A stretch of 47,858 nucleotides of DNA from an uncultured Rhizobiaceae group bacterium (GCA_938030595.1 CALHIB010000003.1:1-47858); one strand, 5' to 3'; shown: positions 2,901-28,759, counted from the first letter of the stretch. Made by a program: numbers and translations. Notes: a model not told the origin generated them from the sequence alone.

Positions 2901-2929
2901 TTGATTTACTCTAGTAATAGGAATATATT
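2901..2929 (+). promoter_or_regulatory. Candidate sigma70-type promoter for the GafY-like gene
   Basis: TTGATT (2901-2906), 17-nt spacer, TATATT (2924-2929). GGGGAGAG RBS and the ATG at 2951 lie just downstream. Confidence 0.4.
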
Positions 2930-2950
2930 CATATTGGGGAGAGAAAAGTA

Positions 2951-3427
2951 ATGAATGCACCAGCACTATGTTGTGTTTCGGCACATCAAACAAACAATAG
3001 AAAGTCATTTAAACGGCATAGTAAAGTAAAAGGGAGCATGACACCAAATATTCATAGCTATGGTATAACATCATTGAACAAGCCTGGTGATAGATTATTG
3101 GCAACGTTTGTGAACCAAATGGTTGCTTCTGCGTATGAAATACCTTCGCAAAGACTATTAAAAGATGATCGCGGCACTGCCAAAGCAACACGAGCTAGGC
3201 AAATTTCAATATATTTAATGCACACTGGATTATCATTTTCTCTCTCAAAGATTTCCCGTATCTATAGAAAAGATCGCACAACAATAGGATATGCATGCCG
3301 TGTGGTTGAAGATTTGAGAGATACTCCAGCTTTCGATGATCGGTTGATTGAGTTAGAAGAAACAATAAACACAGTCTTGATATTAGCTGCATATATCCCT
3401 GAAAATGGGGGGCAAAATGCAAAATAA
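2951..3427 (+). CDS. Small DnaA-domain-IV-like helix-turn-helix protein with no AAA+ module; candidate GafY-like GTA activator subunit
   Basis: 158 aa. The C-terminal half, RARQISIYLMHTGLSFSLSKISRIYRKDRTTIGYACRVVEDLRD, matches the DnaA C-terminal DNA-binding signature. Strong RBS. Overlaps the next ORF. Confidence 0.75.
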   Translation: MNAPALCCVSAHQTNNRKSFKRHSKVKGSMTPNIHSYGITSLNKPGDRLLATFVNQMVASAYEIPSQRLLKDDRGTAKATRARQISIYLMHTGLSFSLSKISRIYRKDRTTIGYACRVVEDLRDTPAFDDRLIELEETINTVLILAAYIPENGGQNAK

Positions 3428-4238
3428 AGCCAAGCAGGAAGAGCTGCGACATTCACTTAGATTGCTAAAATTACTCTCTAAACGTTTCAAGACAGGCCTT
3501 GAATATCGGATGGAAGAAGACGTTGCTATAATTGTTTTAAATGAAAATCAATATCGCTTTAGTTATGACCTTATAAGGAAACTATGTGACAAAAAATACT
3601 TGGTTACATTCCCTAATGTAATAAAAATTACTGATTCAGGTACGGCTTATTTAAAGAAACAGTTAAATCCGGATTCGCTTCTTGCAAGTGCAGATAATCA
3701 CATTGCGGAAACGACTATCATTCATGATCGTCAATATCATCAAGTTCAGATGAACATGAATGAATCGCCTTTGCTGAGGTTATTTTCACGAAAAACAAAA
3801 AACGGTACAAGTTATATCACCATGGAAGAGTTTCAAGCCGGCGAGCGTTTGCGTCAGGACTTTGAGCGCGGACAATTACAACCAAAGATTACTGCAAGTT
3901 TGCAAGGCTCGATGGGTTCTGCAGGCAGGGCGGGTAGAAGTAGTGTCGAGGAGATTACAGATTTTGCACTGGACGCAAGAAAGCGTGTTGGTAAGGCAAT
4001 AGAGAACCTTGGCCCTGAATTATCAGGAGTTACTCTGGATATATGTTGTTTCTTGAAAGGTTTGGAGAGTGTAGAGCGTGAAAGAGCATGGCCACCTCGC
4101 TCAGCAAAACTGATGCTCAAAACTGCTCTTGCATTGCTGGCCAGACATTATGGAATTTCCGGATATGAAAACCAGCGTACGAATAAACACACTTCATGGG
4201 GAGGAGCTGATTATCGACCAACCATAAACCGTACCTAA
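3405..4238 (+). CDS. Conserved alphaproteobacterial protein (DUF6456-like C-terminal region); candidate GafZ-like partner
   Basis: 277 aa. The more likely start is the ATG at 3417, which follows a GGGGGG RBS. Motifs: FQAGERLRQDFERGQLQPKITASL and WPPRSAKLMLKTALALLARHYG. Translationally coupled to 2951..3427. Confidence 0.7.
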   Translation: MGGKMQNKAKQEELRHSLRLLKLLSKRFKTGLEYRMEEDVAIIVLNENQYRFSYDLIRKLCDKKYLVTFPNVIKITDSGTAYLKKQLNPDSLLASADNHIAETTIIHDRQYHQVQMNMNESPLLRLFSRKTKNGTSYITMEEFQAGERLRQDFERGQLQPKITASLQGSMGSAGRAGRSSVEEITDFALDARKRVGKAIENLGPELSGVTLDICCFLKGLESVERERAWPPRSAKLMLKTALALLARHYGISGYENQRTNKHTSWGGADYRPTINRT

Positions 4239-12799: not shown

Positions 12800-13258
12800 A
12801 TGGCAGATCGCCCATTTTGGAAAACAAAAACGCTAGAACAAATGTCTAAGACTGAGTGGGAGTCGCTTTGCGATGGTTGTGGCAAGTGTTGTCTTAACAA
12901 GCTGGAGGACTGGGATACTGCTGAAATTTACTGGACTAATATCGGTTGTGAACTTCTTGATTGCGATAGTTGTCGCTGTAAGGATTATGGTAATCGCTTT
13001 GAGCTGGTTTCTGATTGCATCCAACTGACACCCGAAACTGTTCGTAGTTTGACCTGGCTGCCTCCTACCTGCGCATACCGTTTGGTACGAGATGGCGAAG
13101 ACCTTTTTGATTGGCACCCGCTCATATCAGGTGATCCAGAAACGGTTCATAAAGCGGGTATAAGTGTGAAAGGCAGAGCCATTCCTGACGATGGAAAACC
13201 TGCAGAAGAATACGAAGATAACTTGGTAGATTGGCCCAGAGAGATTTATATTCCTTAA
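12800..13258 (+). CDS. ycgN: YcgN/UPF0260 family Cys-cluster protein
   Basis: 152 aa. Has [18 protein letters not shown]...[12 protein letters not shown], characteristic of YcgN. Confidence 0.85.
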
Positions 13259-13378: not shown

Positions 13379-13999
13379 ATGTTAGGAAGATGCTGCGTGT
13401 CTATTGAGCTTTCGCCTTTACCTGCAATTGGTTTTGCCACTGAACCACTCCCAACCCGTGATGGGTTTCGTTTTACACTTACGACGTTACTCTCAACATT
13501 GTTAAATGATGCAGAGCAAATGTTTGGCCCACGTGACATGTCTTATACGCCAGTGGGAATTGAGTTTTACGGAAATAGACCACAAGTCTGGTATCCCGGT
13601 ACCAATAAACATATATCAATAATCTTAACAGATAGTGCGCGTGAAGACCCAGCGCAGGCCATTTTTCAATTAGCGCATGAAGTGATGCACCTACTATCGC
13701 CAACAGGCGGAGCAAATGCCCCTGTAATCGAAGAAGGGTTAAGCGCCTTATTCCAACAACGTGCCAACGAAGTTTATGATCTAGATCTACATCTTGTAGC
13801 AGTGCCTTATGTCAAGGCAACAGAGCTGGCAAATATGCTCTTGAAAGGTGAGCCTAGTATTATAAAGCGTTTGAGAAAAATTGAGCCTGCCTTTCATAAA
13901 TGGACACCACGATTTTTAGTTTCAGAGGCAAGGATATCTCGCGCTTTGGCAGAAGAACTATGTGAGCCATTTATAGATTTTGAAACTCGAGAAAAATAA
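13379..13999 (+). CDS. Orphan HEXXH zinc-metallopeptidase-like protein
   Basis: QLAHEVMHLLSP, with EEGLS 13-14 residues downstream of the motif's second His as a possible third ligand. The start is ambiguous: the first 47 codons overlap an antisense ORF, and alternative starts are TTG 13499 and ATG 13520. Confidence 0.55.
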   Translation: MLGRCCVSIELSPLPAIGFATEPLPTRDGFRFTLTTLLSTLLNDAEQMFGPRDMSYTPVGIEFYGNRPQVWYPGTNKHISIILTDSAREDPAQAIFQLAHEVMHLLSPTGGANAPVIEEGLSALFQQRANEVYDLDLHLVAVPYVKATELANMLLKGEPSIIKRLRKIEPAFHKWTPRFLVSEARISRALAEELCEPFIDFETREK

Positions 14000-14023
14000 T
14001 TTCAAAATAATAGGAATTTATTC

Positions 14024-14052
14024 TTGACACCGAAACGGTGTTGGGGTACATT
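14024..14052 (+). promoter_or_regulatory. Candidate sigma70-type promoter of the GTA cluster
   Basis: TTGACA (14024-14029), 17-nt spacer, TACATT (14047-14052). The spacer contains the inverted repeat CACCGaaaCGGTG. Confidence 0.5.
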
Positions 14053-14123
14053 ATTTATACGATCGGAGAAGTGCGGATAGCACTCTTTGAGCCTTAAATC
14101 ATACATTTGTATTTTGCTTAATT

Positions 14124-14157
14124 AGCTGCCTTTTCTATAGGTGGCTTTTTTGCGTTT
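14124..14157 (+). terminator. Candidate intrinsic terminator in the GTA leader, upstream of g1
   Basis: 7-bp stem AGCUGCC/GGUGGCU (two G-U pairs) with a 9-nt loop, followed by TTTTTTGCGTTT. Lies about 40 nt upstream of the g1 start. Confidence 0.45.
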
Positions 14158-14192
14158 AAGTATCTCATACTGTTTCAAACGGGGAATATGTT

Positions 14193-14492
14193 TTGTCAGA
14201 TGAACCAAGTCAACTGGAAGAAATCGCAATTAAATTTCGTAACAAATTACTTGATAAGGTTTCTAAATTTGAAGACGTGGAAGCGGATGAAGCAATCTCT
14301 TCTGAGCAGCAATTAAAATCGTATATGGGATTTTTCAAGTTACTTCAAAGTTTGGAAGAAATGATAAAACGGGTGCAACAAGAACGTGAAAAAAAGTCTG
14401 ACAGGGGAGTGGATATATTGGAATTCCGCCGAGAGCTTGAAGAACAAATTGCCAAACTTGTCGACGCAAAAACTCAGGCAATTATTCCTTGA
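14193..14492 (+). CDS. g1-position small acidic coiled-coil protein (possible GTA small terminase-like protein)
   Basis: 99 aa with a TTG start preceded by GGGGAA. The assignment rests on its position directly upstream of TerL; no motif was recognised. Confidence 0.5.
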   Translation: MSDEPSQLEEIAIKFRNKLLDKVSKFEDVEADEAISSEQQLKSYMGFFKLLQSLEEMIKRVQQEREKKSDRGVDILEFRRELEEQIAKLVDAKTQAIIP

Positions 14493-15750
14493 GGAGTTAG
14501 ACGAAAAAGCAATCGAGGTCATTAAGGCTGACTGGCCGTTATGGGCGAGATTAAAACAAAGGCCTCCACTATGCGACTGGCGGACATGGCTAGTTTTGGG
14601 AGGACGTGGCGCAGGCAAAACAAGAACCGGAGCTGAGTGGCTTAAGGGGGTTGCAATGGCAGACCCGCATTATCCAGGCTCAAGTGGCGGCAGGATAGCG
14701 CTGGTAGGAACAAGCTATGATGACATGCGTGATGTCATGGTTGAAGGAGAATCCGGATTACTCGCAATCCATAAAAAATCAGAACGCCCGCAATGGATTG
14801 CCTCTCGAAAAGAGCTAATTTGGTCTAATGGTACGATTGGAAAATTGTTCTCTTCAATCAACCCTGAAGGGCTGAGGGGGAGTCAATTTGGAGCTGTATG
14901 GTGCGATGAAATCTGCAAGTGGCAAAATCTGCAACAAACTTGGGACATGCTACAATTTTGTTTAAGGTTGGGAAAAAATCCAAGGCAGGTTGTGACAACC
15001 ACACCCAAGCCCTTAAAGCTTTTGAAGGCGCTGATCAAAGATCCAACAACCATAACAGTGCGTTCCACAACATCAGAGAATGCGAGCAATTTGGCTGACG
15101 GGTTTTTAGAGTATGTTGAAGGAATATACTCAGGCACCCGCTTAGGCAGGCAAGAGCTTGAAGGTGAAATTATTGAAAACAATGAATATGCATTGTGGCG
15201 TAGGGAACAAATTGAAGCATCCAGATTAGACAAGCCAGCACAAATAAATCGCATCGTCATCGCAGTTGATCCGCCAGCTGGCTCAAATTCCAAGTCAGCA
15301 TCTTGTGGTATTATTGCCGCTGGCATTTTGCCTGATGGGAAGTGTTGTGTCCTGGAAGACAGAACAATATCCAAGGCCACGCCAGATCGGTGGGCAGCGG
15401 AAGTTGTTGCACTTTATCAATTGTTGGAAGCTGATTTGATTGTTGCTGAGGTAAACCAGGGTGGTGACATGGTAAAAACGGTCATTCATACGATCGATCC
15501 AACAGTACCAGTGCGTTCAGTACATGCAAGTCGTGGCAAGTGGATAAGAGCTGAACCAGTAGCGCTTTTGTATGAGCGGGGACGAGTTTTCCATGCAGAA
15601 AAATTTGCAGAACTTGAAGACCAAATGTGCGCCTTTACACCAGATGGAATAGCAGATGGTGTCTCGCCTGATCGGGTAGATGCGCTTGTTTGGGCAATTA
15701 CAGAACTGGCGCTCACTAAACGCAGCGAACCTCGCGTACGCAGTGCATAA
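14386..15750 (+). CDS. GTA/phage terminase large subunit (g2)
   Basis: DWPLWARLKQRPP...WLVLGGRGAGKTRTGAEW (Walker A), plus a C-terminal nuclease region. The called GTG start overlaps g1 by 107 nt. The real start may be TTG 14437, 14449 or 14458. Confidence 0.93.
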   Translation: MKKSLTGEWIYWNSAESLKNKLPNLSTQKLRQLFLEELDEKAIEVIKADWPLWARLKQRPPLCDWRTWLVLGGRGAGKTRTGAEWLKGVAMADPHYPGSSGGRIALVGTSYDDMRDVMVEGESGLLAIHKKSERPQWIASRKELIWSNGTIGKLFSSINPEGLRGSQFGAVWCDEICKWQNLQQTWDMLQFCLRLGKNPRQVVTTTPKPLKLLKALIKDPTTITVRSTTSENASNLADGFLEYVEGIYSGTRLGRQELEGEIIENNEYALWRREQIEASRLDKPAQINRIVIAVDPPAGSNSKSASCGIIAAGILPDGKCCVLEDRTISKATPDRWAAEVVALYQLLEADLIVAEVNQGGDMVKTVIHTIDPTVPVRSVHASRGKWIRAEPVALLYERGRVFHAEKFAELEDQMCAFTPDGIADGVSPDRVDALVWAITELALTKRSEPRVRSA

Positions 15751-15774
15751 ATTCAACAAATAACGGGATTAATA

Positions 15775-16947
15775 ATGAACCGATTTTTTAACTGGTTGAA
15801 ATCATCAACCAATACACATGCACGTCTGGAAGAAAAACAATCTACCGGTTCGTTAATTGCTTTTCATTCCGCAGGCAATGCAATTTGGTCTGCAATGGAT
15901 GGCGGTGATCTGGCAGGACAAGCCTTTGCACGCAATCCGGTAGTGTATCGTTGTATTAGAATGATCAGTGAAGCAGCTGGTTCATTACCCTTTATGGTAC
16001 GCGAGGAAAGGGTGGAAGTGCATGAGCATCCGCTTCTTGAAGTTTTATCAAAGCCAAATGCGCGTCAATCTGGACCTAAATTTCTTGAGGCCATGTATGG
16101 TCATTTGTTGATTGCAGGAAATGTCTATTTGACAAAAATAGAAGTTGCCGAACAACTTCGTGAAATTCATATTCTGGATCCTGCTAAAGTACGCCCGGTT
16201 TTGGATGAAAAAGGTTGGCCAAAGTTCTATGAATATGTTTCGGGGTCAGTTGTAACCCGTTATGATCTAAGCGAGATTTTACATCTGGCTTTATTTAATC
16301 CATCAGATGATATTAACGGTCTCTCACCTTTGTCTTCAGCGCATATGGCTTTGGATATTCATAACGCTGCAAGCAATTGGAACAAAGCTTTATTGGACAA
16401 CTCGGCTCGCCCTTCAGGAGCGTTGGTTTATGCATCATCCGCAGGTGAGAATTTGACTGACGATCAATTTAATCGCCTAAAAAATGAACTGGAAGAAGGC
16501 TACACTGGCTCAACCAGAGCAGGACGTCCTATGCTGCTGGAAGGTGGGCTTGATTGGAAGGCCATGGGATATAGTCCGCGTGATATGGACTTCATGCAGG
16601 CAAAAAATGGTGCAGCACGTGAAATTGCTTTGGCTTTTGGGGTGCCTCCAATGTTGTTGGGAATTCCAGGTGATAATACTTATTCAAACTATCAAGAAGC
16701 CAATCGTGCATTTTGGCGACAAACTGTTTTACCGCTAGCGAATAAAACGTCTTGCGATATGGGAAATTGGCTTGCCAGTGATTTTACTGGAAACCTCACA
16801 CTCATTCCGAATGTTGAAATGGTTGATGCTTTGGCATCAGATCGGGAAGGGTTATGGGCACGTTTGGGGCAGGCAGATTTCCTCACCGCAAATGAAAAGC
16901 GGGAAGCTTTGGGTTATCTCCCGATGGATGACGAAGGCATCGTTTAG
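15775..16947 (+). CDS. HK97-family phage portal protein (g3)
   Basis: 390 aa. Has AFARNPVVYRCIRMISEAAGSLPF, the central ...SPRDMDFMQAKNGAAREIALAFGVPPMLLG... and a typical portal C-terminus. Confidence 0.95.
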   Translation: MNRFFNWLKSSTNTHARLEEKQSTGSLIAFHSAGNAIWSAMDGGDLAGQAFARNPVVYRCIRMISEAAGSLPFMVREERVEVHEHPLLEVLSKPNARQSGPKFLEAMYGHLLIAGNVYLTKIEVAEQLREIHILDPAKVRPVLDEKGWPKFYEYVSGSVVTRYDLSEILHLALFNPSDDINGLSPLSSAHMALDIHNAASNWNKALLDNSARPSGALVYASSAGENLTDDQFNRLKNELEEGYTGSTRAGRPMLLEGGLDWKAMGYSPRDMDFMQAKNGAAREIALAFGVPPMLLGIPGDNTYSNYQEANRAFWRQTVLPLANKTSCDMGNWLASDFTGNLTLIPNVEMVDALASDREGLWARLGQADFLTANEKREALGYLPMDDEGIV

Positions 16948-16948
16948 A

Positions 16949-17284
16949 ATGTCTGTTTCTTTTACAAACCCTAGTGAGATTCCGGAACAAGTTTGGATAT
17001 TTATTGCGAAAGTCATTGGTGCAATTTGTGGGTCTGCAATATCTATAGCGTATTTATTACCCGCCAACAGGCGTGAAGCGTTCACACGATTTTTTGTTGG
17101 CATTACGATCGGAATGATTTTTGGAACATCAGCCGGCATTAAGCTTGCTGACTATTTGAGTATATCTGATCGCATGTCTGAAATCGAAATAGCTCTGTCA
17201 GGGGCTGCGGTCGCAAGCCTTTGTGCCTGGTGGGGGCTGGGTGCTCTCAATCGCCTCACATCGCGGCTGGGCGTTACAAAATAA
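16949..17284 (+). CDS. Small three-TM membrane protein at the g3.5 position
   Basis: The ATG at 16949 lies 1 nt after the portal stop. The track's 16772 start overlaps the portal gene and is unlikely. Hydrophobic segments: VWIFIAKVIGAICGSAISIAYLL, FFVGITIGMIFGTSAGIKLA, IALSGAAVASLCAWWGLGAL. Confidence 0.6.
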   Translation: MSVSFTNPSEIPEQVWIFIAKVIGAICGSAISIAYLLPANRREAFTRFFVGITIGMIFGTSAGIKLADYLSISDRMSEIEIALSGAAVASLCAWWGLGALNRLTSRLGVTK

Positions 17285-17296
17285 ATTTTTGATAAC

Positions 17297-17989
17297 ATGG
17301 AGAATAGCATGAAACAACGAGGGCTAATGGCTCAGCGTGAGACTAAATTTGCGCCTGTTACTGTCCAGGACATAAAACTTGATGGCAGCTTTTCAGGCTA
17401 TGCAAGTGTCTTTGGTGCTGTGGACCAAGGTAATGACATGGTGGCAAAGGGGGCGTTTGCAAATTCTTTGAAAAACCGAAAGCCCACAGACATACGCATG
17501 TTATTCCAGCATGACCCTGATCAGCCAATTGGATGCTGGAAAAAAATCATTGAAGATAAAAAAGGTCTGTACGTTGAAGGTAAGATTACACGCGGTGTGA
17601 GGCGCAGTGAAGAAGTCTTGGAGCTTATGCGAGAAGGTGCTTTGGATGGGCTATCCATTGGTTTCAAAACAAAGCGCGCGCGGGTAAATCCCGCAACAAA
17701 AATACGTACAATTTTGGCAGCAGACCTTTGGGAAATTTCCATTGTTACATTTCCGCTTCTTGAAGAAGCGCGGATTGAAACGGTGAAGAGTTTCAGAAAA
17801 AACAAACTTCCAACTCAACGAGAATTTGAACGATGGCTAACGCGGGATGCGGGGCTGTCGAGGCGTGAAGCAAAGATGATTATTTCAAATGGCTTCAACG
17901 CACTCCACGCTAAGCAGGATGCGAGCGTGGAACCAACCCTTGCAGACAAGATCCGCAAGGCAACACAAACCCTATCTTGCTTAAGATAA
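17297..17989 (+). CDS. HK97-family prohead protease (g4)
   Basis: FSGYASVFGAVDQGNDMVAKGAF...MLFQHD...PIG...GLSIGF, typical of S78 prohead proteases. An alternative ATG at 17309 follows a GGAGA RBS. Confidence 0.93.
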   Translation: MENSMKQRGLMAQRETKFAPVTVQDIKLDGSFSGYASVFGAVDQGNDMVAKGAFANSLKNRKPTDIRMLFQHDPDQPIGCWKKIIEDKKGLYVEGKITRGVRRSEEVLELMREGALDGLSIGFKTKRARVNPATKIRTILAADLWEISIVTFPLLEEARIETVKSFRKNKLPTQREFERWLTRDAGLSRREAKMIISNGFNALHAKQDASVEPTLADKIRKATQTLSCLR

Positions 17990-18004
17990 ACAAGGACATA
18001 AAAT

Positions 18005-19264
18005 ATGAAAACACAAATCAAACGCGCACCAGAAGCAAAAGCTGCAACCGGTCAAGCGCAAGATGTTGCAGAATGCTTCGATGAGTTTATGGAAGCATTT
18101 GAAGCCTTCAAGGAAACCAATGATGAACGCTTGGCACAAGTTGAAAATCAGGTTTCCGAAGATGTCGTTACGGTTGAAAAGATGAACCGTATCAATAAGG
18201 CGCTTGATGAACAAAAGTCCCTGATGGACAACTTGCTACTTAAAGGCAAACGTCCGTCTGTTGGTGGCACCGCAGTGACATCAATTGTAGGCATTGAACA
18301 CAAACAGGCGTTTAATGATTATATTCGCGGCGGTCGTGAAGATGGTCTTCGTCGCCATGAACAAAAAGCGCTTTCTTATGGTTCTGATGCTGATGGTGGC
18401 TACTTGGTACCAGATGAAACTGCTACTGAAATTGGCCGCCGTCTGGCGCTTGGTTCACCAATTCGCTCAATTGCTGGTGTGCAACTTGTTTCATCGTCAG
18501 TTTATAAAAAACCATTTGCAGTAACTGGACCTGCCACAGGATGGGCCTCTGAAACAGAAATCCGTTCAGAAACAGCTTCTCCAACCTTGTCTGAACTTCA
18601 ATTCCCAACCATGGAACTTTATGCAATGCCGGCAGCAACGTCTCAACTGTTGGATGATGCAGCTGTTGACATTGATGCCTGGATTGCAAGTGAAGTGGAA
18701 CAAGCTTTTGCAGAACAGGAAAGTGCAGCCTTTATTAATGGTGATGGCGTTAACAAACCACGTGGGTTCTTAACGCATTCTACCGTTGATGAAAGCAATT
18801 GGTCTTGGGGTAATCTTGGTACTGTTTCTACAGGCAACGATGGTGCCTTTGCAGATGAAGATGCCTCTGACACACTTGTTGATACGATCTATTCGTTGAA
18901 AGCAGGTCATCGTCAGAATGCAAATTGGGTCATGAACCGCAAGACACAAGCTGAAGTCCGTAAACTCAAGGATGCCGACGGTAATTACCTATGGCAAGCA
19001 CCTGCCGCAGTTGGGCAATCAGCGAGTCTGATGGGCTTTGGCGTTGTGGAAGCAGAGGATATGCCGGACATGGCAGCAAACAGTCTTTCAATGGCTTTTG
19101 GTGATTTCAACCGCGGCTATTTGATTGTTGATCGTGCAGGGGTTCGTGTTCTGCGTGATCCTTACTCAGCTAAACCCTATGTCTTGTTCTATACGACCAA
19201 GCGTGTTGGTGGTGGTGTTCAGGATTTTGATGCCATTAAACTTGTAAAATTCGGTACAAACTAA
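18005..19264 (+). CDS. HK97-family major capsid protein (g5)
   Basis: 419 aa with an N-terminal coiled-coil delta/scaffold-like region, then ...GGYLVPDE...ELYAMPAATSQLLDDAAVDIDAWI...FINGDGVNKPRGFL... Confidence 0.95.
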   Translation: MKTQIKRAPEAKAATGQAQDVAECFDEFMEAFEAFKETNDERLAQVENQVSEDVVTVEKMNRINKALDEQKSLMDNLLLKGKRPSVGGTAVTSIVGIEHKQAFNDYIRGGREDGLRRHEQKALSYGSDADGGYLVPDETATEIGRRLALGSPIRSIAGVQLVSSSVYKKPFAVTGPATGWASETEIRSETASPTLSELQFPTMELYAMPAATSQLLDDAAVDIDAWIASEVEQAFAEQESAAFINGDGVNKPRGFLTHSTVDESNWSWGNLGTVSTGNDGAFADEDASDTLVDTIYSLKAGHRQNANWVMNRKTQAEVRKLKDADGNYLWQAPAAVGQSASLMGFGVVEAEDMPDMAANSLSMAFGDFNRGYLIVDRAGVRVLRDPYSAKPYVLFYTTKRVGGGVQDFDAIKLVKFGTN

Positions 19265-19312
19265 CAACGTCTCCTCCCTCGTTGTTGCCCTATATTGGGC
19301 ATGTACTGAACT

Positions 19313-19343
19313 GGCCCCGTCAAAATTTGGCGGGGCTTTTCTT
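19313..19343 (+). terminator. Intrinsic terminator immediately after the capsid gene, inside the GTA cluster
   Basis: Stem GCCCCGUC/GGCGGGGC (8 bp, one G-U) with a 7-nt loop, followed by TTTTCTT. Sits in the 100-nt capsid-g6 gap. Confidence 0.6.
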
Positions 19344-19364
19344 ATTCTTAATCAGGAAAACCAA

Positions 19365-19934
19365 ATGCCATTAGCTATCCTAACGCCTCCTGAGGCCAAT
19401 CCTGTAAGCCTTCCACAAATCAAACGCCATTTGCGTATCGATCATGCGGAAGATGATGAATATTTGATCGAAATTGCCGAGGCTGCGACATTGCATGTCG
19501 AAGCGTTAATTGGTCAATCACTCATCACTAGAACAGTACGCCAATTCGTAGATACGGTTCCTGCCAGTCGCAGTATTCCCTTGGAAGCATGGCCGATTAA
19601 CAATGTACAAGAAGTTCGAGGCTATGATCTGGAGGGTAATCCTAATCTGATTTCGGCGGATCATTACATGCTAGATAATCGAATGGATCCTGCTGCGTTA
19701 GTGTTAAATACAAATGTTAACTTCAACGCGTTTTCCAATGGTTTGGAAATTGACCTGGTTATCGGTTATGGCGAAACCGGGGTTGATATTCCCTCAAATA
19801 TCACGCGCGCAATTTTGGTACTGATTGCTCATTGGTATGAATTCAGAGGAACGCTACCAGCTGGTGATGAAACTGCCCTAATTCCTGATGGTTTAAACGT
19901 ACTTTTGGCACCTGTGAGAAAGGTGCATCTATGA
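19365..19934 (+). CDS. Head-tail connector / gp6-like head completion protein (g6)
   Basis: 189 aa. PVSLPQIKRHLRIDHAEDDEYLIEIAEAATLHVEALIGQSLITRT is typical of Phage_connect_1-type proteins. Confidence 0.85.
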   Translation: MPLAILTPPEANPVSLPQIKRHLRIDHAEDDEYLIEIAEAATLHVEALIGQSLITRTVRQFVDTVPASRSIPLEAWPINNVQEVRGYDLEGNPNLISADHYMLDNRMDPAALVLNTNVNFNAFSNGLEIDLVIGYGETGVDIPSNITRAILVLIAHWYEFRGTLPAGDETALIPDGLNVLLAPVRKVHL

Positions 19935-20266
19935 CAAAAATCAAAACCTATGATGCAGGACGATTTAATCGCCAACTCACTATCGAAAATGAAGTAGAGC
20001 TAGCAGATGGATGCGGTGGCTATGTCTCTCGTTATGAAGCGCAAGATACAGTTTGGGCTCATTTGTGCCCACTGCGTTCATCAAGTGTTGCACGGGCAGA
20101 TAATTCAGTAACCGAACTAACGCATCGTATCTTGATAAGATTTCGCCCAAACATCTCAGGCACCACGCGTTTTATAACAGGTAGCAGGAAATTTGAGGTT
20201 CAAACAGTAAGAGATCCTGATGAAACACGCCGGTATCTTGAGTGCGATTGTATCGAACGCAAATGA
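19931..20266 (+). CDS. Head-tail adaptor / head closure protein (g7)
   Basis: 111 aa. RFNRQLTIENEVELADGCGGYVSRYEAQDTVWAHLCPL...HRILIRFRPNI fits the Phage_H_T_join pattern. Shares a 4-nt overlap with g6. Confidence 0.85.
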   Translation: MTKIKTYDAGRFNRQLTIENEVELADGCGGYVSRYEAQDTVWAHLCPLRSSSVARADNSVTELTHRILIRFRPNISGTTRFITGSRKFEVQTVRDPDETRRYLECDCIERK

Positions 20267-20403
20267 GCAAACTATCAATAAAAATCACACAATTAGATCT
20301 GTCTCGCCTGCTTAAAAACTTAAGGTCAAATCAGAACCTAAATCGTAATACTCGCAAGAAATCAATTTTGCGGACAAGAAAATCAAACAGGAAAATTAGA
20401 TGA
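20263..20403 (+). CDS. Unlisted 46-aa highly basic ORF filling the g7-g8 gap
   Basis: MSKLSIKITQLDLSRLLKNLRSNQNLNRNTRKKSILRTRKSNRKIR. Its ATG overlaps the g7 stop (ATGA) and its TGA overlaps the g8 ATG (ATGA). Confidence 0.35.
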   Translation: MSKLSIKITQLDLSRLLKNLRSNQNLNRNTRKKSILRTRKSNRKIR

Positions 20404-20810
20404 CTCATCCGGCATTGGCATTGCAAGCGGCAATGTTTTCAAGACTTGATACTTCAAGTGAGCTGACAGTTTTACTCGGAGAGAGCTTTGTTTTTGATGA
20501 TGTACCCAAGTCAAAAAGCTTGCCTTACATCGTCTTTGCTGAATCCATACACAATGATTGGAGTACGGGTTCAGAGGAAGGCATGGAGCATTTTATCTCC
20601 CTTAATATCTGGTCGGACCAAAATGGACGCAAGGAAGCCATGACAATCGCACAGGCTGTCATCAATGCATTCAAGGATTTGCCAAGACTTCTTAATGATC
20701 ACGTACTCATAAATTTTGCCCATGAATTTACCGAGATTTCAAAAGACCAAGACACCGAACTGTTTTTGGCAAAAGTAAGCTTTAGAGCGGTTACTGAACC
20801 GCAAGAATAA
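20400..20810 (+). CDS. DUF3168-type tail completion/terminator protein (g8)
   Basis: 136 aa. ALQAAMFSRLDTSSELTVLLGESFVFDDVPKSKSLPYIVFAE matches the DUF3168 N-terminus, and it sits directly before the tail tube gene. Confidence 0.8.
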   Translation: MTHPALALQAAMFSRLDTSSELTVLLGESFVFDDVPKSKSLPYIVFAESIHNDWSTGSEEGMEHFISLNIWSDQNGRKEAMTIAQAVINAFKDLPRLLNDHVLINFAHEFTEISKDQDTELFLAKVSFRAVTEPQE

Positions 20811-20832
20811 TTTAATAAAAAGGAACAAACAT

Positions 20833-21246
20833 ATGGTTGCTCAAAAGGGTAAAGACCTGCTGTTGAAACTGAACTCTGATGGCAATGGTTTTGTAACGAT
20901 TGCGGGTCTCAGAGCTAGACAAATCTCGTTTAATGCAGAAACGGTTGACACAACAGATTCAGAATCAGCCGGCCGCTGGCGTGAACTATTGGCTGGTGCA
21001 GGCTTAAGGCGTACTTCCATTACTGGTGCTGGCATTTTTAAAGACGCGCAAAGCGATGAATTGGTTAAATCAACCTTCTTTGGAGCAAGCATTGTGCCTT
21101 GGCAAATTATTATACCTGATTTTGGTACTGTCGAAGGTTTATTCCAAATTGTATCACTTGAATATGCTGGGCAGCATGATGGTGAAGTTACATTTGACAT
21201 TGCCTTGGAATCCGCAGGTGAAATTTCGTTTGAAAGTATCAACTAA
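20833..21246 (+). CDS. Major tail (tube) protein, TP901-1-like (g9)
   Basis: 137 aa. KGKDLLLKLNSDGNGFVTIAGLRARQISFNAETVDTTDSES...WRELL..AG.RS.SITGAGIFKD. Confidence 0.9.
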   Translation: MVAQKGKDLLLKLNSDGNGFVTIAGLRARQISFNAETVDTTDSESAGRWRELLAGAGLRRTSITGAGIFKDAQSDELVKSTFFGASIVPWQIIIPDFGTVEGLFQIVSLEYAGQHDGEVTFDIALESAGEISFESIN

Positions 21247-21566
21247 TGGTCAATGCATTAAGGGGTGAAATTAGTGCTGATCTTGATGGTAAATCCTGGA
21301 CGCTATGCCTGACGCTAGGCGCGCTTGCTTGTCTGGAAAATGATCTGGGTGTTTCAAATCTAAATGAGCTTACAGAAAGGTTTTCAAACGGAAAACTAAG
21401 TGCGTCTGATATTTTAAATATCATCAAGGCAGGTCTTTCAGGTGGCGGCTATACGCTAACAACTCAAGAGATTGCTGATATGCGAGTAGAGGGCGGCGTT
21501 AGTGGCTATGTACAAATAGCCGCCAATTTACTCGAAGCTACATTTTCACCAAATCGCGATGAGTAA
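21246..21566 (+). CDS. GTA tail assembly chaperone-like protein (g10)
   Basis: 106 aa. GEISADLDGKSWTLCLTLGALACLENDLG matches the family annotated as gene transfer agent family protein. Confidence 0.8.
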   Translation: MVNALRGEISADLDGKSWTLCLTLGALACLENDLGVSNLNELTERFSNGKLSASDILNIIKAGLSGGGYTLTTQEIADMRVEGGVSGYVQIAANLLEATFSPNRDE

Positions 21567-21762
21567 AACTTCGCCACTTCCCTGGTCTCAACTCATGGCA
21601 TTTGGTCTTGGATACTTAAAACTTGCCCCCCATGTTTTTTGGTCAATGACCTTAAGAGAAATGGACTCTGCAATTGAAGGTTGTTTTGGAAAGACCATGA
21701 AACCAGGTTTCCCATCCAGATTGGCCGTCAACGATCTAATGGCTGAGTACCCAGATGAATAA
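21559..21762 (+). CDS. g10.1 / rcc01693-family small tail assembly protein
   Basis: 67 aa. LPWSQLMAFGLGYLKLAPHVFWSMTLREMDSAIEG. Has its own ATG, which overlaps the g10 end (ATGAGTAA). Confidence 0.75.
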   Translation: MSKTSPLPWSQLMAFGLGYLKLAPHVFWSMTLREMDSAIEGCFGKTMKPGFPSRLAVNDLMAEYPDE

Positions 21763-21776
21763 ATGGAAAAGAAACA

Positions 21777-22373
21777 ATGAATGATAACACCGTAACAGTT
21801 GATGTCTCGGCAGATACCAAGCAATTTGATCAGGCAATGGATGCATTAAACAATAGCACCAAAGATTTTGGTCGTGTCTTTTCTTCAACCATCAGTAGGG
21901 CCATTACATCTGGCAAAGGGTTCGAGGATACATTGCGCTCAATTGGGCAAAGATTTGCAGATTTGGCACTTAATCAAGCTTTAAAACCCTTGGAGAATAT
22001 TTTTAGTAACTTATTGGGTTCGGCAGTGGGCGCAGTTGGTGGTGGCATTGGCATACCAGGATTTGCCAAAGGCGGATTATTTGCAAATCAGTCTTTGGTG
22101 CCATTTGCAAATGGAGGCGTTGTGTCCAGCCCAACCCCTTTTGGTTTTGGACAACGATTGGGCGTAATGGGCGAGGCAGGGCCAGAAGCAATTATGCCAC
22201 TTAAGAGAGGCTCAGATGGCAAGCTTGGTGTAGCGTCAGCAACAAGTTCCGGCAATGCAATGAACGTGGTTTTTAATGTAAACGCGAACGACGCTGCAAG
22301 CTTCAAACGTTCTGAAGGTCAGATCACCGCAATGCTTGCAAGAGCAGTTTCACGCGGTCAGAGAAACTTATAA
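21777..22373 (+). CDS. Short tail tape measure protein (g11)
   Basis: 198 aa. Has a Gly-rich centre and FANGGVVSSPTPFGFGQRLGVMGEAGPEAIMPLKRGSDGKLGV, typical of GTA tape measure proteins. Confidence 0.8.
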   Translation: MNDNTVTVDVSADTKQFDQAMDALNNSTKDFGRVFSSTISRAITSGKGFEDTLRSIGQRFADLALNQALKPLENIFSNLLGSAVGAVGGGIGIPGFAKGGLFANQSLVPFANGGVVSSPTPFGFGQRLGVMGEAGPEAIMPLKRGSDGKLGVASATSSGNAMNVVFNVNANDAASFKRSEGQITAMLARAVSRGQRNL

Positions 22374-22390
22374 TTCAATAAAGGTTTGAT

Positions 22391-23038
22391 ATGAATTCAA
22401 ATACTTCATTTCATGAAGTAAGGTTTCCCACCGACCTTGCTTTAGGTGCTTCTGGTGGGCCAATACGTCGTACAGAAGTGATAACGCTTGGATCTGGAAA
22501 AGAACAGAGAAACTCAAGATGGGCACACTCAAGAAGAAGATACAATGCAGGTTACGGCATAAAGACAATAGAAGATTTGCAAACTGTTATAGAATTTTTT
22601 GAAGAGAGACGGGGTCGTTTGTATGGCTTTAGATTTAAAGACCCTTTAGATTTTAAATCTTCAAAAGCGGGCAAAGACATTACAGCTTATGATCAAACGA
22701 TTGGTCATGGTGACGGAGAAAAACGAACTTTCCAACTCATAAAAAGATATGGTGATGAGCAAACAGGCTATGTTCGCAGCATTAAAAAACCCGCCACAGG
22801 ACAACTCGCATTATCTATTAATGATACTGCAGTCACTGAAGATCAATACAGCGTTGACTGGAATTCTGGTTTAATTGAATTTAATTCAAACTCAATTCCA
22901 CAGAGTGATACGACTATCAAAGCAGGGTATGAATTTGATATTCCTGTACGGTTTGATGCCGATGAAATTTCTATCAACTTAACGCATTTTGAAGTGGGCG
23001 ATATTCCTTCAATACCATTGGTGGAGTTGTTGGTATGA
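22391..23038 (+). CDS. Distal tail protein, DUF2460/TIGR02217 family (g12)
   Basis: FHEVRFPTDLALGASGGPIRRTEVITLGSGKEQRNSRWAHSRRRYNAGYG is diagnostic for GTA g12. Confidence 0.9.
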   Translation: MNSNTSFHEVRFPTDLALGASGGPIRRTEVITLGSGKEQRNSRWAHSRRRYNAGYGIKTIEDLQTVIEFFEERRGRLYGFRFKDPLDFKSSKAGKDITAYDQTIGHGDGEKRTFQLIKRYGDEQTGYVRSIKKPATGQLALSINDTAVTEDQYSVDWNSGLIEFNSNSIPQSDTTIKAGYEFDIPVRFDADEISINLTHFEVGDIPSIPLVELLV

Positions 23039-23925
23039 AACAGATCTCACCGCAATTGAAAGCTCACATCTCAAACGAAACAACAACCCTTTGCAGGTGC
23101 TGGATTTTAAAGACAAAGCAGGGTGAAAGACTTGGCTTTACTGACCATGATGAAAATATATTACTAGAGGATGTAATCTGCGAAAGAGATGCAGGAGTTG
23201 AAGCAAGCAGTATTGAAGAGCGTCTAGGCCTTAATACGGATACAAACGAAGTTTCAGGTGCATTACAATCTTTGTATATTACCGCTGAAGATATCAACGC
23301 TGGTAAATACGATAACGCAGAAATATCAACTTACATTGTCAATTGGAAAAGGCCTTCAGAGTACTTTCTGGATCAGGTTTCCCTAGTCGGTGAAATTACC
23401 CAAGAAGATCATCATTACAGGATGGAATTGAGAAGCTTTACATCTCAGCTGGATCAAACAAAAGGTAATCACTTCATCAAAAGGTGCCAAGCAAACTTGG
23501 GGGATGAGAGGTGCAAATTATCTTTAAACGCAAGTAATTTTTCTGCGCTTGGCAAAGTTATTCAGGTTAAGACTAATGTTATCGTATGGGTGTCGGGTTT
23601 AAGTTCATTTGATAGCGGTTGGTTCCGTGGTGGTCATCTGAGTTGGACGACTGGAGAAAACGAAAGTCAAAAAATCGAAATTTCAGAGCATATTAAGCTT
23701 GATGAAATTGCTATCCTTCACCTATGGCAACCCATGCCAAATAAAATCAATTTGGAAGACAGTTTTTTAATAAAAGTTGGCTGTAACAAAGAATTTTTAA
23801 CGTGTTCTGAAAAGTTTTCAAACACCCAGAACTTCAGAGGGTTTCCTCACATGCCTGGTAATTCGTTCGTTGTGAGTTATGCGGGTAATTCAGACAATTT
23901 TGACGGTGGTCCAATCATCAAATGA
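23035..23925 (+). CDS. Baseplate hub protein, DUF2163 plus BR0599-type C-terminus (g13)
   Basis: TTLCRCWILKTKQGERLGFTDHDENI, and a C-terminal Cys-rich region ...CQANLGDERCK...CNKEFLTCSEKFSNTQNFRGFPHMPG. Confidence 0.9.
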   Translation: MKQISPQLKAHISNETTTLCRCWILKTKQGERLGFTDHDENILLEDVICERDAGVEASSIEERLGLNTDTNEVSGALQSLYITAEDINAGKYDNAEISTYIVNWKRPSEYFLDQVSLVGEITQEDHHYRMELRSFTSQLDQTKGNHFIKRCQANLGDERCKLSLNASNFSALGKVIQVKTNVIVWVSGLSSFDSGWFRGGHLSWTTGENESQKIEISEHIKLDEIAILHLWQPMPNKINLEDSFLIKVGCNKEFLTCSEKFSNTQNFRGFPHMPGNSFVVSYAGNSDNFDGGPIIK

Positions 23926-24386
23926 GAGAAAAAAGTTTAAGAAATAAAGTGGTTCGTGAGGCCCGCTTGTGGATTGGCACGCCTTATCTACACCAAGCGT
24001 CTGTTCGTGGGCATGGTGCAGATTGCTTGGGATTGGTACGTGGCGTTTGGCGAAAATGCATTGGTGAAGAGCCTGAGGCACTCCCTGAATACAGTGCTGA
24101 TTGGGGAGAGGTATCGGCACGTGAAAATATGCTCGAAGCTGCACAAAAGTGGTTTGTAGCGATTGACAAGGATCAAGCAATAGCTGGCGATTTATTGTTA
24201 TTCAGATGGAAAAACGCAAGCATTATTAAACACGCTGGCATCTTAACGAGCCCTTTGCGACATAAGCCAAATTTCATTCACGCCTACGAAAAAGCTGGTG
24301 TCGTTGAAACGACACTTGGCAATCAATGGAAATCAAGGGTGGTTGCTTGTTTTAGATTTCCATCTTCAGACATTATCAGAAAGTAA
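23922..24386 (+). CDS. NlpC/P60-family cell-wall peptidase (g14)
   Basis: ARLWIGTPYLHQASVRGHGADCLGLVRGVW (catalytic Cys) ...IKHAGIL...FIHAY. Confidence 0.9.
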   Translation: MREKSLRNKVVREARLWIGTPYLHQASVRGHGADCLGLVRGVWRKCIGEEPEALPEYSADWGEVSARENMLEAAQKWFVAIDKDQAIAGDLLLFRWKNASIIKHAGILTSPLRHKPNFIHAYEKAGVVETTLGNQWKSRVVACFRFPSSDIIRK

Positions 24387-24389
24387 CCT

Positions 24390-27300
24390 ATGGCAACAGT
24401 TGTATTACAGACAGTAGGCGCGGCCATTGGAGGCGCAATTGCCGGGCCATTTGGTGCGATATTAGGTCGAGCAGCAGGTGCTGCGGCAGGTTATGCAATT
24501 GATCAAACCTACCTTACAAAAGATCAGGTAATCCAGGGCCCGCGCCTTGAAAGTTCAAGAATCCTTTCTTCTGTTGAAGGTGCCCCAATACCAAAAATAT
24601 ACGGTAGAAACCGCATTTCCGGTCAGGTGATATGGGCGACAAGGTTTGAGGAAGTTGCAAATACACAAAAATCTGGCGGCAAAGGAACTGGTAGTTCTTC
24701 CAGTGCCACAAGTTTTTCTTACTTTGCAAATTTTGCCATTGGCTTATGTGAAGGTCCAATATCGGGGGTTCGAAGAATATGGGCTGATGGCCAAGAGTTG
24801 GATTTAACAAAAATCGAATTTCGTTTTTACAATGGAAACGAAGAACAAGAGCCTGACCCATTGATTGAGGCAAAGCAGGGGATAGGCAATACTCCAGCGT
24901 TTCGTGGAACAGCATATGTAGTCTTTGAAAGCCTGCCATTGGAAAACTACGGAAACAGAATTCCACAACTGTCTTTTGAAGTTATAAGAGTAATTGGCAA
25001 GCTTGAAACAGCAATTAAATCCATCACGGTAATACCAGGCTCGACGGAATTCGGATACGATCCGGAACTTGTTACAAGCGGTGGTGAAAACGAAGTTTAC
25101 AACGCGCATAATCGGCATGTTTCAATCGCTAGTTCCAATTGGAAAGCTTCAATTGATGAGTTGCAAATGGTATGTCCAAATTTGGAATCCGTTTCGCTTG
25201 TGGTAGCGTGGTTTGGTACAGATATAAGAGCTGCCGAGTGTATAATACAGCCAGGTGTAACAACCCAAATAGGCATTAAATGGCGGGTCAATAATCTGCG
25301 TCGTCATGAAGCTCATTTAATCTCACAGGTAGATGACCGACCTGCCTTTGGTGGAACACCTGATGATGATGCCGTATTGCGCGCCATTGCTGATCTAAAA
25401 GCGCGTGGCTTAAAAGTTGTCCTTTATCCGTTTATTATGATGGATATTCCAAACAATAATTCATTACCCGACCTTTCAGGAACAGGTGAACAACCAGCCT
25501 ATCCTTGGCGCGGCGAAATATCTTGTTTCCCTAAGCCTGGTGTTGAAAATACAGCTGATAAAACTGCTTCTGCAAGAGCTCAGCTAGAAACATTCAAGGA
25601 GCAGTATAATAAATTTATACTACATTATGCCAATCTTTGCGATCAGGCTGGAGGGGTCGATGGCTTTCTCATCGGTTCGGAATTAAGAGGCCTCTCAAGA
25701 GTAAGAGACAATCTGGGCAAGTTTCCATTTGTAGAAACTTTAATTGAGCTTGCCAGTCAGTGTAGAGCCATTCTTGGGAACTCTACGACCATTACATATG
25801 GAGCAGATTGGACAGAGTATTTCGGTTATCAACCGCAAGATGGCAGTGGCGATGTTTTATTCAATCTTGATGATCTTTGGGCATCGCCAGCGATAGATGT
25901 GATTGGCATAGATAATTATATGCCATTGTCTGATTGGCGAGATGAAGGCGACCCACAGAACAATCTTGCAACTTCAAATCACAATATTGATTATCTGAAA
26001 TCCAACATAGCACGCGAAGAAGGTTATGATTGGTATTATCAAAGTGAAGAAGATCGCTTAAACGGATCACGCACAGAAATAACCGATGGGCAAGGTGAAC
26101 CTTGGATATACCGTTACAAGGATATTCATTCCTGGTGGTCCAACTCGCATTATCATAGAAAGAATGGCATTCGCGAGACATCTCCAACCAATTGGGTGCC
26201 TAACTCCAAACCGATATTCTTTACAGAATTAGGATGTCCCGCAGTTGATAAAGGCACAAACCAACCAAATGTTTTCCATGACCCGAAATCAGCGCAATCA
26301 GCTTTGCCATATTTTTCTTCGGGTGGCCGCGATGATTTAATCCAAAGGAGATATTTGGAAGCCAATTATGAATTTTGGAGTGATCCTCAAAACAATCCGG
26401 TATCCAGTATTTATCAAGGGAGTATGGTTGATGTAGAAAACATGTCACCTTGGACTTGGGATGCGAGGCCGTTTCCATGGTTCCCATTGCAACTGGATGT
26501 TTGGAGTGATGGTGATAATTGGCATAAAGGCCACTGGCTGACAGGCCGACTTGGTGGAGCTTCTTTGCAGGATTTGATTGAAACCATCTTGGGTGATTTT
26601 GGATACATAAACTTCGAAGTTAAACTGGATGGTATTTTGGATGGGTATATTATTCCAAATCAGGCATCTGCTCGTTCAGCAATAGAGCCACTTTTAAGAT
26701 TGTATAATATTCAGGTGTTTGAAGAAAATGGCGTACTAATAATCAAGGATCGTCATTATGCAGATACGATTGAAATAAACGCTGAGCAATTGGTTCAAGA
26801 GGAAGGCGAGTTTGAAAAGACAACAAAACGCGATAATGAATTGGAACTTCCTGTAGAGGCGATCGTAACGCACGGTTCAATTTTTGGCGATTATGAAGAA
26901 ACTGCTACGAAGTCACGTCGACTGGAAGGAGGAAGCGATCGCCAAATAAGTTTGCAGGCACCTATTACAATGCCGGAAACATCAGCAAGAAAGCTGGCAG
27001 ACAAGAACCTTAGAGAAAGTTGGCTCGGGCGGCAGGAATGCAATGTTTCTTTATCCATCAGTGAAATGGAAGTAACGCCAGGAGACATTATAAAATTCTC
27101 GAACTCTCTTGGAGAAAAATGGCAGGTAAATAGTGTTGAGAGAAATCTGGCACAAAAGCTGTCCCTATCTTCAGTTGTTGATTTTCCAATTTTATCAGAA
27201 AATGAAACAACAACTTCTTATGCAAGTATTGTCCCGAGTTTTTATGGCAAACCAAATGTTGTATTTTTGGACTTACCGCTTTTAAATTCCAAAGACCAAA

Positions 27301-28208: not shown

Positions 28209-28415
28209 ATGGTTGAAGAAAAGAACTGGTATGAATCGAAGACAATATGGGGCGCATTACTTGCTGTTGGCGCATCGTTTATGGGCACGCTAGGTATCAG
28301 CGTTGATACAGTTGCGCAAACTGACTTGGCTGATGCGCTGATTCAATTGATAGGTGCAATTGGTGCTATGATTGCAATATATGGAAGACTTTCTGCAACA
28401 GATATTATTTCATAG
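28209..28415 (+). CDS. Two-TM small membrane protein, holin-like
   Basis: 68 aa. TM1 TIWGALLAVGASFMGTLGI, TM2 LADALIQLIGAIGAMIAIYG. AAGGAA RBS. Starts 18 nt after the g15 stop. Confidence 0.55.
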   Translation: MVEEKNWYESKTIWGALLAVGASFMGTLGISVDTVAQTDLADALIQLIGAIGAMIAIYGRLSATDIIS

Positions 28416-28419
28416 TAGA

Positions 28420-28641: not shown

Positions 28642-28759
28642 AGCAAATTGGGTTTGTTTAGCGTTTGCACCCATTACATGGTCTAAAAAGGACACGAAAG
28701 AAAGCTTGAAGCAGATAAAACAACACAATGCGGTGTGGGCCGCATTGTGTAACGTATAA
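28541..28759 (+). CDS. Small lipoprotein in an overlapping reading frame (o-spanin-like)
   Basis: MITFKKRSGLGILLAGLMPLISSC has a lipobox (ISS|C). The mature part is about 47 aa with two further Cys. It overlaps the previous ORF by 101 nt in the +1 frame. Alternative ATGs at 28523 and 28535. Confidence 0.5.
   Translation: MITFKKRSGLGILLAGLMPLISSCQTMATSESNEANWVCLAFAPITWSKKDTKESLKQIKQHNAVWAALCNV

Follow-up and report, generated by a model that had tools for sequence, protein, structure and literature searches.

A predicted GafZ-type antitermination checkpoint ahead of the first gene of an RcGTA-type cluster in a Rhizobiaceae group bacterium

Background

Why should a strong-looking promoter be followed by an intrinsic terminator before the first gene of a GTA cluster? 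GTA production kills the producing cell, and the structural genes therefore need a tight off state. To our knowledge, antitermination by GafZ has been shown so far only in Caulobacter, in a system whose terminator, built of repeats, is unusual and whose promoter depends on activators. The leader analysed here was originally predicted to be either an antitermination checkpoint, at which a GafZ-like factor loads at the promoter and carries RNA polymerase through the terminator, or the source of a discrete small RNA. We examined the locus itself, the corresponding loci of its relatives and the candidate regulators encoded nearby.

Results

The GTA cluster and its putative regulators

The stretch of DNA that was analysed (47,858 nt from an uncultured Rhizobiaceae group bacterium, henceforth the window) contains a complete RcGTA-type cluster of about 14 kb (g1–g15, 14193–28190), which comprises g1 and the genes for the large terminase, portal, protease, capsid, connector and tail proteins and the GTA TIM-barrel host-specificity protein (features are listed in Table 1). 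As originally predicted, the ribosome-binding site and the TTG start of g1 follow the leader hairpin; both are kept in relatives, in which genes at the g1 position code for 99–124 aa. The same-strand upstream neighbours of the GTA promoter are ycgN (12800–13258) and an ORF of 206 aa (13379–13999), for which no Pfam or NCBIfam match was found. In close relatives the ORF position between ycgN and the GTA promoter is variable: it holds about 200 aa in several of them and 99 aa in L129, and is absent from L128. At the other end of the cluster, a 68-aa ORF with hydrophobic stretches (28210–28416), which may encode a membrane or holin-like protein, lies directly 3' of g15, and an inverted repeat (28723–28750) is found in the 0.9-kb gap between g15 and a response-regulator gene. 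Searches of the window revealed no tRNA gene and no Rfam family.

Table 1. Features of the GTA control region, the regulator genes and the cluster, in window coordinates
Feature	Position	Strand	Details
Second copy of the TAGGAAT-N-TATTC box	2918–2930	+	21 nt upstream of the gafY ATG
GafY-like protein, DnaA domain-IV-type HTH	2951–3427	+	PF08299, E = 4.7e-11
GafZ-like protein (DUF6456), predicted antiterminator	3405–4238	+	PF20057, E = 8.5e-43
Box TAGGAATTTATTC, candidate operator	14011–14023	+	abuts the -35; G in 74/77 and A in 75/77 aligned promoters
-35 hexamer TTGACA	14024–14029	+	TTGAC in 77/77, final A in 65/77 aligned promoters
Palindrome CACCG-AAA-CGGTG, predicted GafZ-binding element	14028–14040	+	CACCGaaaCGGTG; single copy in the window
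-10 hexamer TACATT	14047–14052	+	T1 in 73/77, A2 in 77/77, T6 in 71/77
-10-like hexamer TACGAT (NANNNT)	14058–14063	+	5 bp after the -10; spans the predicted start site
5' leader stem-loop	14063–14090	+	5' arm is the conserved block CGGAGAAGTGCGG
Leader intrinsic terminator (predicted)	14124–14157	+	8-bp stem, 7-nt loop, tail TTTTTGCGTTT
Ribosome-binding site GGGGAA and g1	14181–14492	+	RBS 14181–14186; TTG start 14193; 99 aa; small-terminase-position gene
Second intrinsic terminator (predicted)	19313–19346	+	follows the capsid gene (end 19264) and precedes the head-tail connector gene (start 19365)

The proteins encoded at 2951–4238, which the original prediction had singled out as possible factors, were identified by their Pfam matches as a GafY-like and a GafZ-like protein (DUF6456, GafA family). 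The two genes are adjacent, with an overlap of 23 nt, and the pair sits 10 kb upstream of the GTA leader. The GafY-like protein matches also DnaA domain IV in the PDB, in agreement with the literature, where GafY is described as homologous to that domain, and the DUF6456 annotation is carried by GafA homologues (Sherlock & Fogg 2022, PMC9638019). For the GafZ-like protein more than 3,400 homologues were found, while no sequence match was obtained in the PDB; a Foldseek comparison of its AlphaFold (AF2) model (pLDDT 71.6) with the PDB returned nothing better than E = 0.2. Thus, the protein appears to lack detectable sequence or fold similarity to Q proteins, which as regards the fold is a weak negative, because the C-terminal half of the model is of low confidence. 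A gene of the Ros/MucR regulator family (1938–2390), on the strand of gafY and about 560 bp in front of it, is followed by a hairpin with a T-run (about 2414–2446); MucR proteins silence AT-rich DNA in alphaproteobacteria.

A promoter module conserved across Hyphomicrobiales

The original prediction of a promoter composed of TTGACA, a 17-nt spacer and TACATT was borne out: the site matches 10 of the 12 consensus positions and is the best one between 12.5 and 16 kb. Counts of such patterns are of limited value, as seven sites with the same score of 10/12 occur between 14 and 34 kb and the numbers in the window do not exceed chance, neither for promoter-like sites (11 vs 7.0 expected from shuffles) nor for terminator-like sites (3 vs 3.5 expected). 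The case for the promoter and the hairpin rests therefore on the relatives. A genome scan with TerL, the large terminase, yielded 80 loci, all from Hyphomicrobiales-type alphaproteobacteria, the nearest of which belong to uncultured Rhizobiaceae MAGs (84% and 78% identity), and look-ups by protein identity added eight closer contigs with the promoter region (79–97% TerL identity).

When the leader was used as a BLAST query, only the promoter core aligned between genera. A PWM scan identified the module in about 68–70 of the approximately 71 genome loci that have upstream DNA, the exceptions being one or two weak cases, and 77 GTA promoters from many Hyphomicrobiales genera could be aligned; cultured relatives with this promoter include Kaistia, Pseudaminobacter and Mesorhizobium. 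The order of elements is the TAGGAA box, TTGACA, the palindrome, the -10 and, exactly 5 bp later, a second hexamer of the form NANNNT. The module sits upstream of different genes and remains AT-rich where the genome has a GC content of about 63%; its conservation is therefore regulatory rather than coding. Exact-pattern scans for TTGACACCGAAACGGTNTT were uninformative outside this set of loci, with 46 metagenome loci that were all chance matches in unrelated contexts and none in viral contigs. A search for IHF sites in the 170 bp upstream of the promoter found nothing convincing; one match with a single mismatch occurs at 13861.

The A and T of the second hexamer are present in 77 of 77 promoters and the C that follows it in 76. 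It is a candidate sigma-dependent pause element, by analogy with the known systems compared below; its invariant A could be merely the initiating nucleotide and not a part of such an element. We considered also whether TACGAT might be the true -10 and rejected this assignment, since the sole -35-like string upstream of it (TTGGGG, 14041–14046) is only 11 nt away.

The palindrome was originally placed inside the spacer. It is indeed present there, not wholly within the spacer though, as its first two bases are at the same time the last two of the -35 hexamer. With one copy in the window against 0.51 expected, it is not significant by itself; across the promoters, its core CG..CG is conserved in 76–77 of 77. 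The third position of the palindrome changes symmetrically (C..G in 24 promoters, G..C in 31, asymmetric in 19; Fisher p = 5e-5 with kinship ignored), as expected for a site bound by a dimer. Its location between the -35 and the -10 is the same as that of the GafZ-binding element (ZBE) of Caulobacter; the sequences differ, and hence position is what suggests that GafZ may bind it. The possibility that an extended palindrome hairpin (14022–14046) serves as a terminator of the upstream gene was rejected, on account of the lack of conservation of the extension and the scarcity of T in the tail.

The box next to the -35 has the consensus TAGGAA-N5-TC(C) across the promoters. Exact copies of the window's version occur at two sites in the window only, the other one being located in front of gafY, where it overlaps the -10 of a promoter-like site (TTGATT-17-TATATT, 2901–2929). 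The TAGGAAT-N-TATTC box may be an operator shared by the GTA promoter and gafY, with GafY or a RogA-like repressor as the candidate binder.

The leader RNA

Downstream of the promoter, the sequence of the clade is near-invariant to about +25 and then diverges until the ribosome-binding site and TTG start of g1; from about +22 to the terminator, the body of the leader lacks conservation even where TerL identity is 83–86%. The conserved beginning forms the 5' arm of a predicted stem-loop, and equivalent 5' hairpins form in the clade members and in L003–L005; over the 77 loci, this region exceeds controls with shuffled 3' halves in structure (mean z of -0.96). Stabilisation of the mRNA and a part in loading are possibilities for its role. 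The leader had no Rfam match at the gathering threshold or at lenient E-values, and each of its three reading frames is broken by stops, with no conserved leader ORF. RNAalifold, applied to a MAFFT (i.e. not structural) alignment of nine leaders, returned no consensus structure and no alternative pairing, a null result that reflects the alignment, since MAFFT leaves the divergent stems out of register. The string GCACTCTTTGAG (14080–14091) resembles the boxA consensus; it is not conserved in L001, L128 and L129, and the resemblance is therefore probably due to chance.

Predicted terminators in the leader and within the cluster

The hairpin and T tract of the original prediction were found as described, including the two G-U pairs: the arms AGCUGCCU (14124–14131) and AGGUGGCU (14139–14146) form 8 bp and are followed by an interrupted T tract (TTTTT-GCG-TTT). 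The suggested check of stem stability with RNAfold gave -10.2 kcal/mol for the hairpin (z = -2.0, 8 of 200 shuffles as stable), which is modest, and -28.5 kcal/mol for the leader as a whole (14058–14165, z = -2.4). The predicted terminated RNA, from about 14059 to about 14150–14157, would be 92–99 nt long, close to the roughly 100 nt originally proposed.

In nine of the 12 clade members a hairpin with a T tract is located 67–74 nt after the -10. The stems are of 7–11 bp, perfect or with a single bulge (-9.6 to -13.2 kcal/mol), they comprise at least five unrelated sequences, and when the variable leader was shuffled 300 times with dinucleotides preserved, each of these terminators was equalled in just 0–6 cases. 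L133, L134 and L003 lack a canonical leader terminator by the rule used. A covariance model derived from three hairpins of near-identical sequence proved too sequence-specific: L001 and L128 were the sole loci it detected, and these weakly. Stems were therefore tabulated for each sequence with RNAfold.

Within the wider set of 68 loci, 18 carry terminators of -12 kcal/mol or stronger in the 160 nt that follow the -10 (1.84 per kb, compared with 0.36 per kb in the same-strand terminase and portal coding DNA; p ~6e-9 with kinship ignored), with predicted 3' ends from +45 to +160, and none on the antisense strand. Enrichment in the first 160 nt of the leader is approximately 5–8-fold. The effect is confined to the neighbourhood of the promoter and to stronger hairpins: a relaxed rule applied to the whole stretch from the promoter to TerL revealed no enrichment (1.08 vs 0.98 per kb). 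The quality of the -10 shows a marginal association with the presence of a terminator (p = 0.04). Since three clade members and about two thirds of the wider loci have no canonical leader terminator by the rule used, it is not an obligatory part of the module; the predicted promoter-proximal terminator is a recurrent, non-obligatory companion of the promoter. In Prosthecomicrobium pneumaticum, the interval from the conserved GTA promoter (529) to the terminase gene (3001) harbours a ~296-bp repeat in about five tandem copies (L064:650–1920). Every copy contains the GC-rich inverted repeat CCCTCCCCCCACAAGGGGGGAGGG, and the layout is reminiscent of Caulobacter terGTA with its three 150-bp repeats. 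In Kaistia sp. (L019:2250–2364) a 23-nt sequence is repeated in tandem about five times within the long interval that separates the GTA promoter from the terminase gene.

The second terminator of the window, located within the cluster, is much stronger in its predicted structure (11-bp stem with 7 G-C pairs, -20.4 kcal/mol, z = -5.1, 0 of 200 shuffles as stable). Its stem is identical in L137 and L138, while the loop varies. Given a strong predicted terminator after the capsid gene, expression of g6–g15 would need read-through or antitermination.

Discussion

Proposed mechanism

We propose that the region 14011–14192 is the GTA control region and that it probably works as a lambda-Q-like antitermination checkpoint of the GafZ type. 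This is the first of the two readings originally offered, and it is supported by the GafYZ-like genes, the palindrome at the position of the ZBE, the NANNNT hexamer, the conserved terminator and the second terminator. The steps, i.e. the start site, termination at the hairpin, binding of GafZ to the palindrome, pausing at TACGAT and read-through, are predicted from the sequence as follows. RNA polymerase with the housekeeping sigma factor would start near 14059 from the TTGACA-17-TACATT promoter. In the absence of the activators, transcripts would stop at the leader terminator, giving the RNA of about 92–99 nt and leaving g1 and the genes behind it silent, and read-through from the upstream same-strand genes would be stopped there as well. 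Once GafY and GafZ are made, GafZ would bind the palindrome between the -35 and the -10 and load onto polymerase that is held briefly at the -10-like hexamer TACGAT. The modified polymerase would then pass both the leader terminator and the terminator behind the capsid gene, so that the whole 14-kb cluster could be expressed.

Alternative explanations

The hairpin could instead be mainly an insulator or attenuator for transcription coming from ycgN and the 206-aa ORF, with the cluster controlled by activation of the promoter (GafY-type) and passive read-through, and with no dedicated antitermination. No other terminator is present between the end of the upstream ORF (13999) and the GTA promoter, the palindrome itself apart, the hairpin is weak enough to leak, many relatives do without a leader terminator, and GafY-dependent activation is a major layer of control in Caulobacter. 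However, leader terminators are about equally frequent behind same-strand (11/32) and opposite-strand (8/36) ORFs, as far as crude ORF calls can tell, and they cluster just 3' of the conserved promoter, not just after upstream stop codons. Moreover, a terminator of -20 kcal/mol within the operon would be hard to pass passively, and the window has both a homologue of GafZ and a palindrome located like the ZBE; we therefore regard this explanation as unlikely. The other reading of the original prediction, a stand-alone trans-acting sRNA with the conserved 5' block or the hairpin as its seed, fares worse. The promoter and the terminator do bound a discrete unit of 92–99 nt, and its first ~20 nt, which form the 5' arm of the hairpin, are highly conserved. 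Yet the body of the RNA is variable in close relatives, the Rfam searches gave no match, and the unit is always found directly 5' of g1. The 5' block is retained also where terminators lie anywhere from +45 to +160 or are absent, which fits a signal in the DNA or for polymerase better than the body of an sRNA. Such a regulator is thus not supported and seems highly improbable; the ~95-nt terminated RNA would be an expected by-product of the checkpoint.

Could the leader be a cis-acting sensor, i.e. a riboswitch or an attenuator, the latter based either on a leader peptide or on a bound protein and alternative terminator and antiterminator folds? It is structured as a whole, with a 5' hairpin and a terminator, but the analysis of aligned leaders, for what a non-structural alignment is worth, revealed no conserved alternative pairing, and the interrupted reading frames, the lack of an Rfam match and the variable middle part make a sensor extremely improbable. 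Finally, an AT-rich intergenic region might contain promoter-like and terminator-like strings by coincidence, and the pattern counts in the window, including that of the palindrome, are within the range of shuffles. This reading is effectively refuted by the conservation of the promoter module in 77 sequences from many genera, 63% GC genomes among them, by the retention of the terminator as a structure with different stems in the clade, and by the enrichment of terminators in the leaders.

A loading platform for antiterminators?

The checkpoint reading can be extended beyond this locus, as a tentative proposal that we hold to be somewhat less probable than its opposite. The invariant cis-module might be a universal loading platform for antiterminators of the GafZ/GafA type across the GTAs of Hyphomicrobiales, with loading via a sigma-dependent promoter-proximal pause, and different lineages might have independently placed different terminators behind it. 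The parts of the platform would be the TAGGAA box, TTGACA, the symmetric palindrome with its CG core, the -10, the NANNNT hexamer and the conserved block from +6 to +18, which forms the 5' RNA hairpin. The terminators behind it would be the canonical hairpins at +45 to +160, the ~296-bp tandem repeats of Prosthecomicrobium and the 150-bp repeats of Caulobacter. In a bolder version, the conserved 5' hairpin of the nascent RNA would itself be a part of the antitermination complex.

Significance

Together with its approximately 70 relatives, the window suggests that GTA control in Hyphomicrobiales is laid out more as in lambda: the -35 is of the consensus type, the putative operator lies within the spacer, the pause-like hexamer is invariant and, in a quarter to a third of the species, the leader contains a plain intrinsic terminator. 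The cis-element is compact (about 150 bp), and its motif may be used to find GTA promoters and targets of GafZ in genomes. Antitermination is already known in the GTAs of Caulobacter and Bartonella, and the window is a predicted further case. What goes beyond the published work is the invariance of the module across Hyphomicrobiales, especially of NANNNT, the canonical terminator before g1, and the TAGGAA box common to the GTA promoter and the region upstream of gafY. These features are useful hypotheses, none of which would surprise a specialist who knows the papers of 2024–2025.

Comparison with known systems

The late control of phage lambda involves the Q protein, the promoter PR' with the QBE, a sigma-dependent pause, the terminator tR' and 6S RNA. 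The window resembles it in the site for the factor between the -35 and the -10, in the -10-like element at the start of the transcript and in the intrinsic terminator shortly downstream, from which a short terminated RNA would be produced constitutively, as predicted here; presumably, the ~95-nt RNA would be the analogue of 6S RNA. The proposal shares with lambda also the modified polymerase that reads through later terminators of the structural operon. In contrast to lambda, the GafZ-like protein has no detectable similarity to Q, and the element is chromosomal and domesticated.

A close parallel among the regulators is found in the CcGTA of Caulobacter crescentus, which has the same split pair of GafY (DnaA-HTH-like) and GafZ (DUF6456/GafA C-terminal-like), an inverted repeat between the -35 and the -10 of the main GTA promoter, one or more terminators further down the transcription unit, and an RcGTA-type cluster of about 14 kb. 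There, the ZBE is the palindrome between the -35 and the -10 of PgtaT, and GafZ associates with RNAP and NusA/G/E and enables the bypass of terGTA, which consists of three GC-rich repeats of 150 bp after the first gene, and of rrnB T1 (Tran & Le 2024, PMC11150451). The promoters differ in that the -35 of PgtaT is degenerate (AATCAT), and its change to the consensus renders the promoter constitutive and independent of GafYZ (PMC11150451), whereas the window has the consensus TTGACA and its relatives the invariant TTGAC. The operator is CACCG-N3-CGGTG here and GCGCCCG-CTGGCGC in Caulobacter. A canonical hairpin with a T tract precedes the first gene here, and a second one follows the capsid gene, whereas the Caulobacter repeats come after the first gene; the leader is about 135 nt long, compared with 250 nt; and the conserved box is directly adjacent to the -35, whereas the upstream elements of Caulobacter are a GafY site at about -120 and IHF. 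Neither pausing nor a -10-like element is mentioned by Tran & Le (2024, PMC11150451).

In the BaGTA of Bartonella, the minimal promoter PbgtA-K is constitutive, the leader terminator TbgtA-K gives the on/off pattern, and regulation requires both this terminator and a NANNNT hexamer located 5 bp beyond the promoter (Korotaev et al., bioRxiv 10.1101/2024.11.20.624540). The window shares with BaGTA a good promoter followed at 5 bp by NANNNT, a terminator in the untranslated leader, upstream of the structural genes, and the proposal that the on/off behaviour stems from the terminator rather than from the promoter. The differences are that BaGTA belongs to an unrelated GTA lineage, that its antiterminator BrrG is Q21-like and not of the GafZ/DUF6456 type, and that its leader is 864 bp long with a weak, L-shaped terminator (-6 kcal/mol).

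The RcGTA of Rhodobacter capsulatus (Fogg 2019; PMC9638019) has a homologous structural cluster. Its regulator GafA differs from the split pair in being one fused protein; it is reported to act via RNAP omega, and neither a terminator nor antitermination has been demonstrated in its case. [quoted passage not shown] Taken against these systems, the window combines a GafYZ pair with a layout in the style of BaGTA and lambda, in which a consensus -35 and a putative operator within the spacer are followed by NANNNT at +1 and by a canonical leader terminator.
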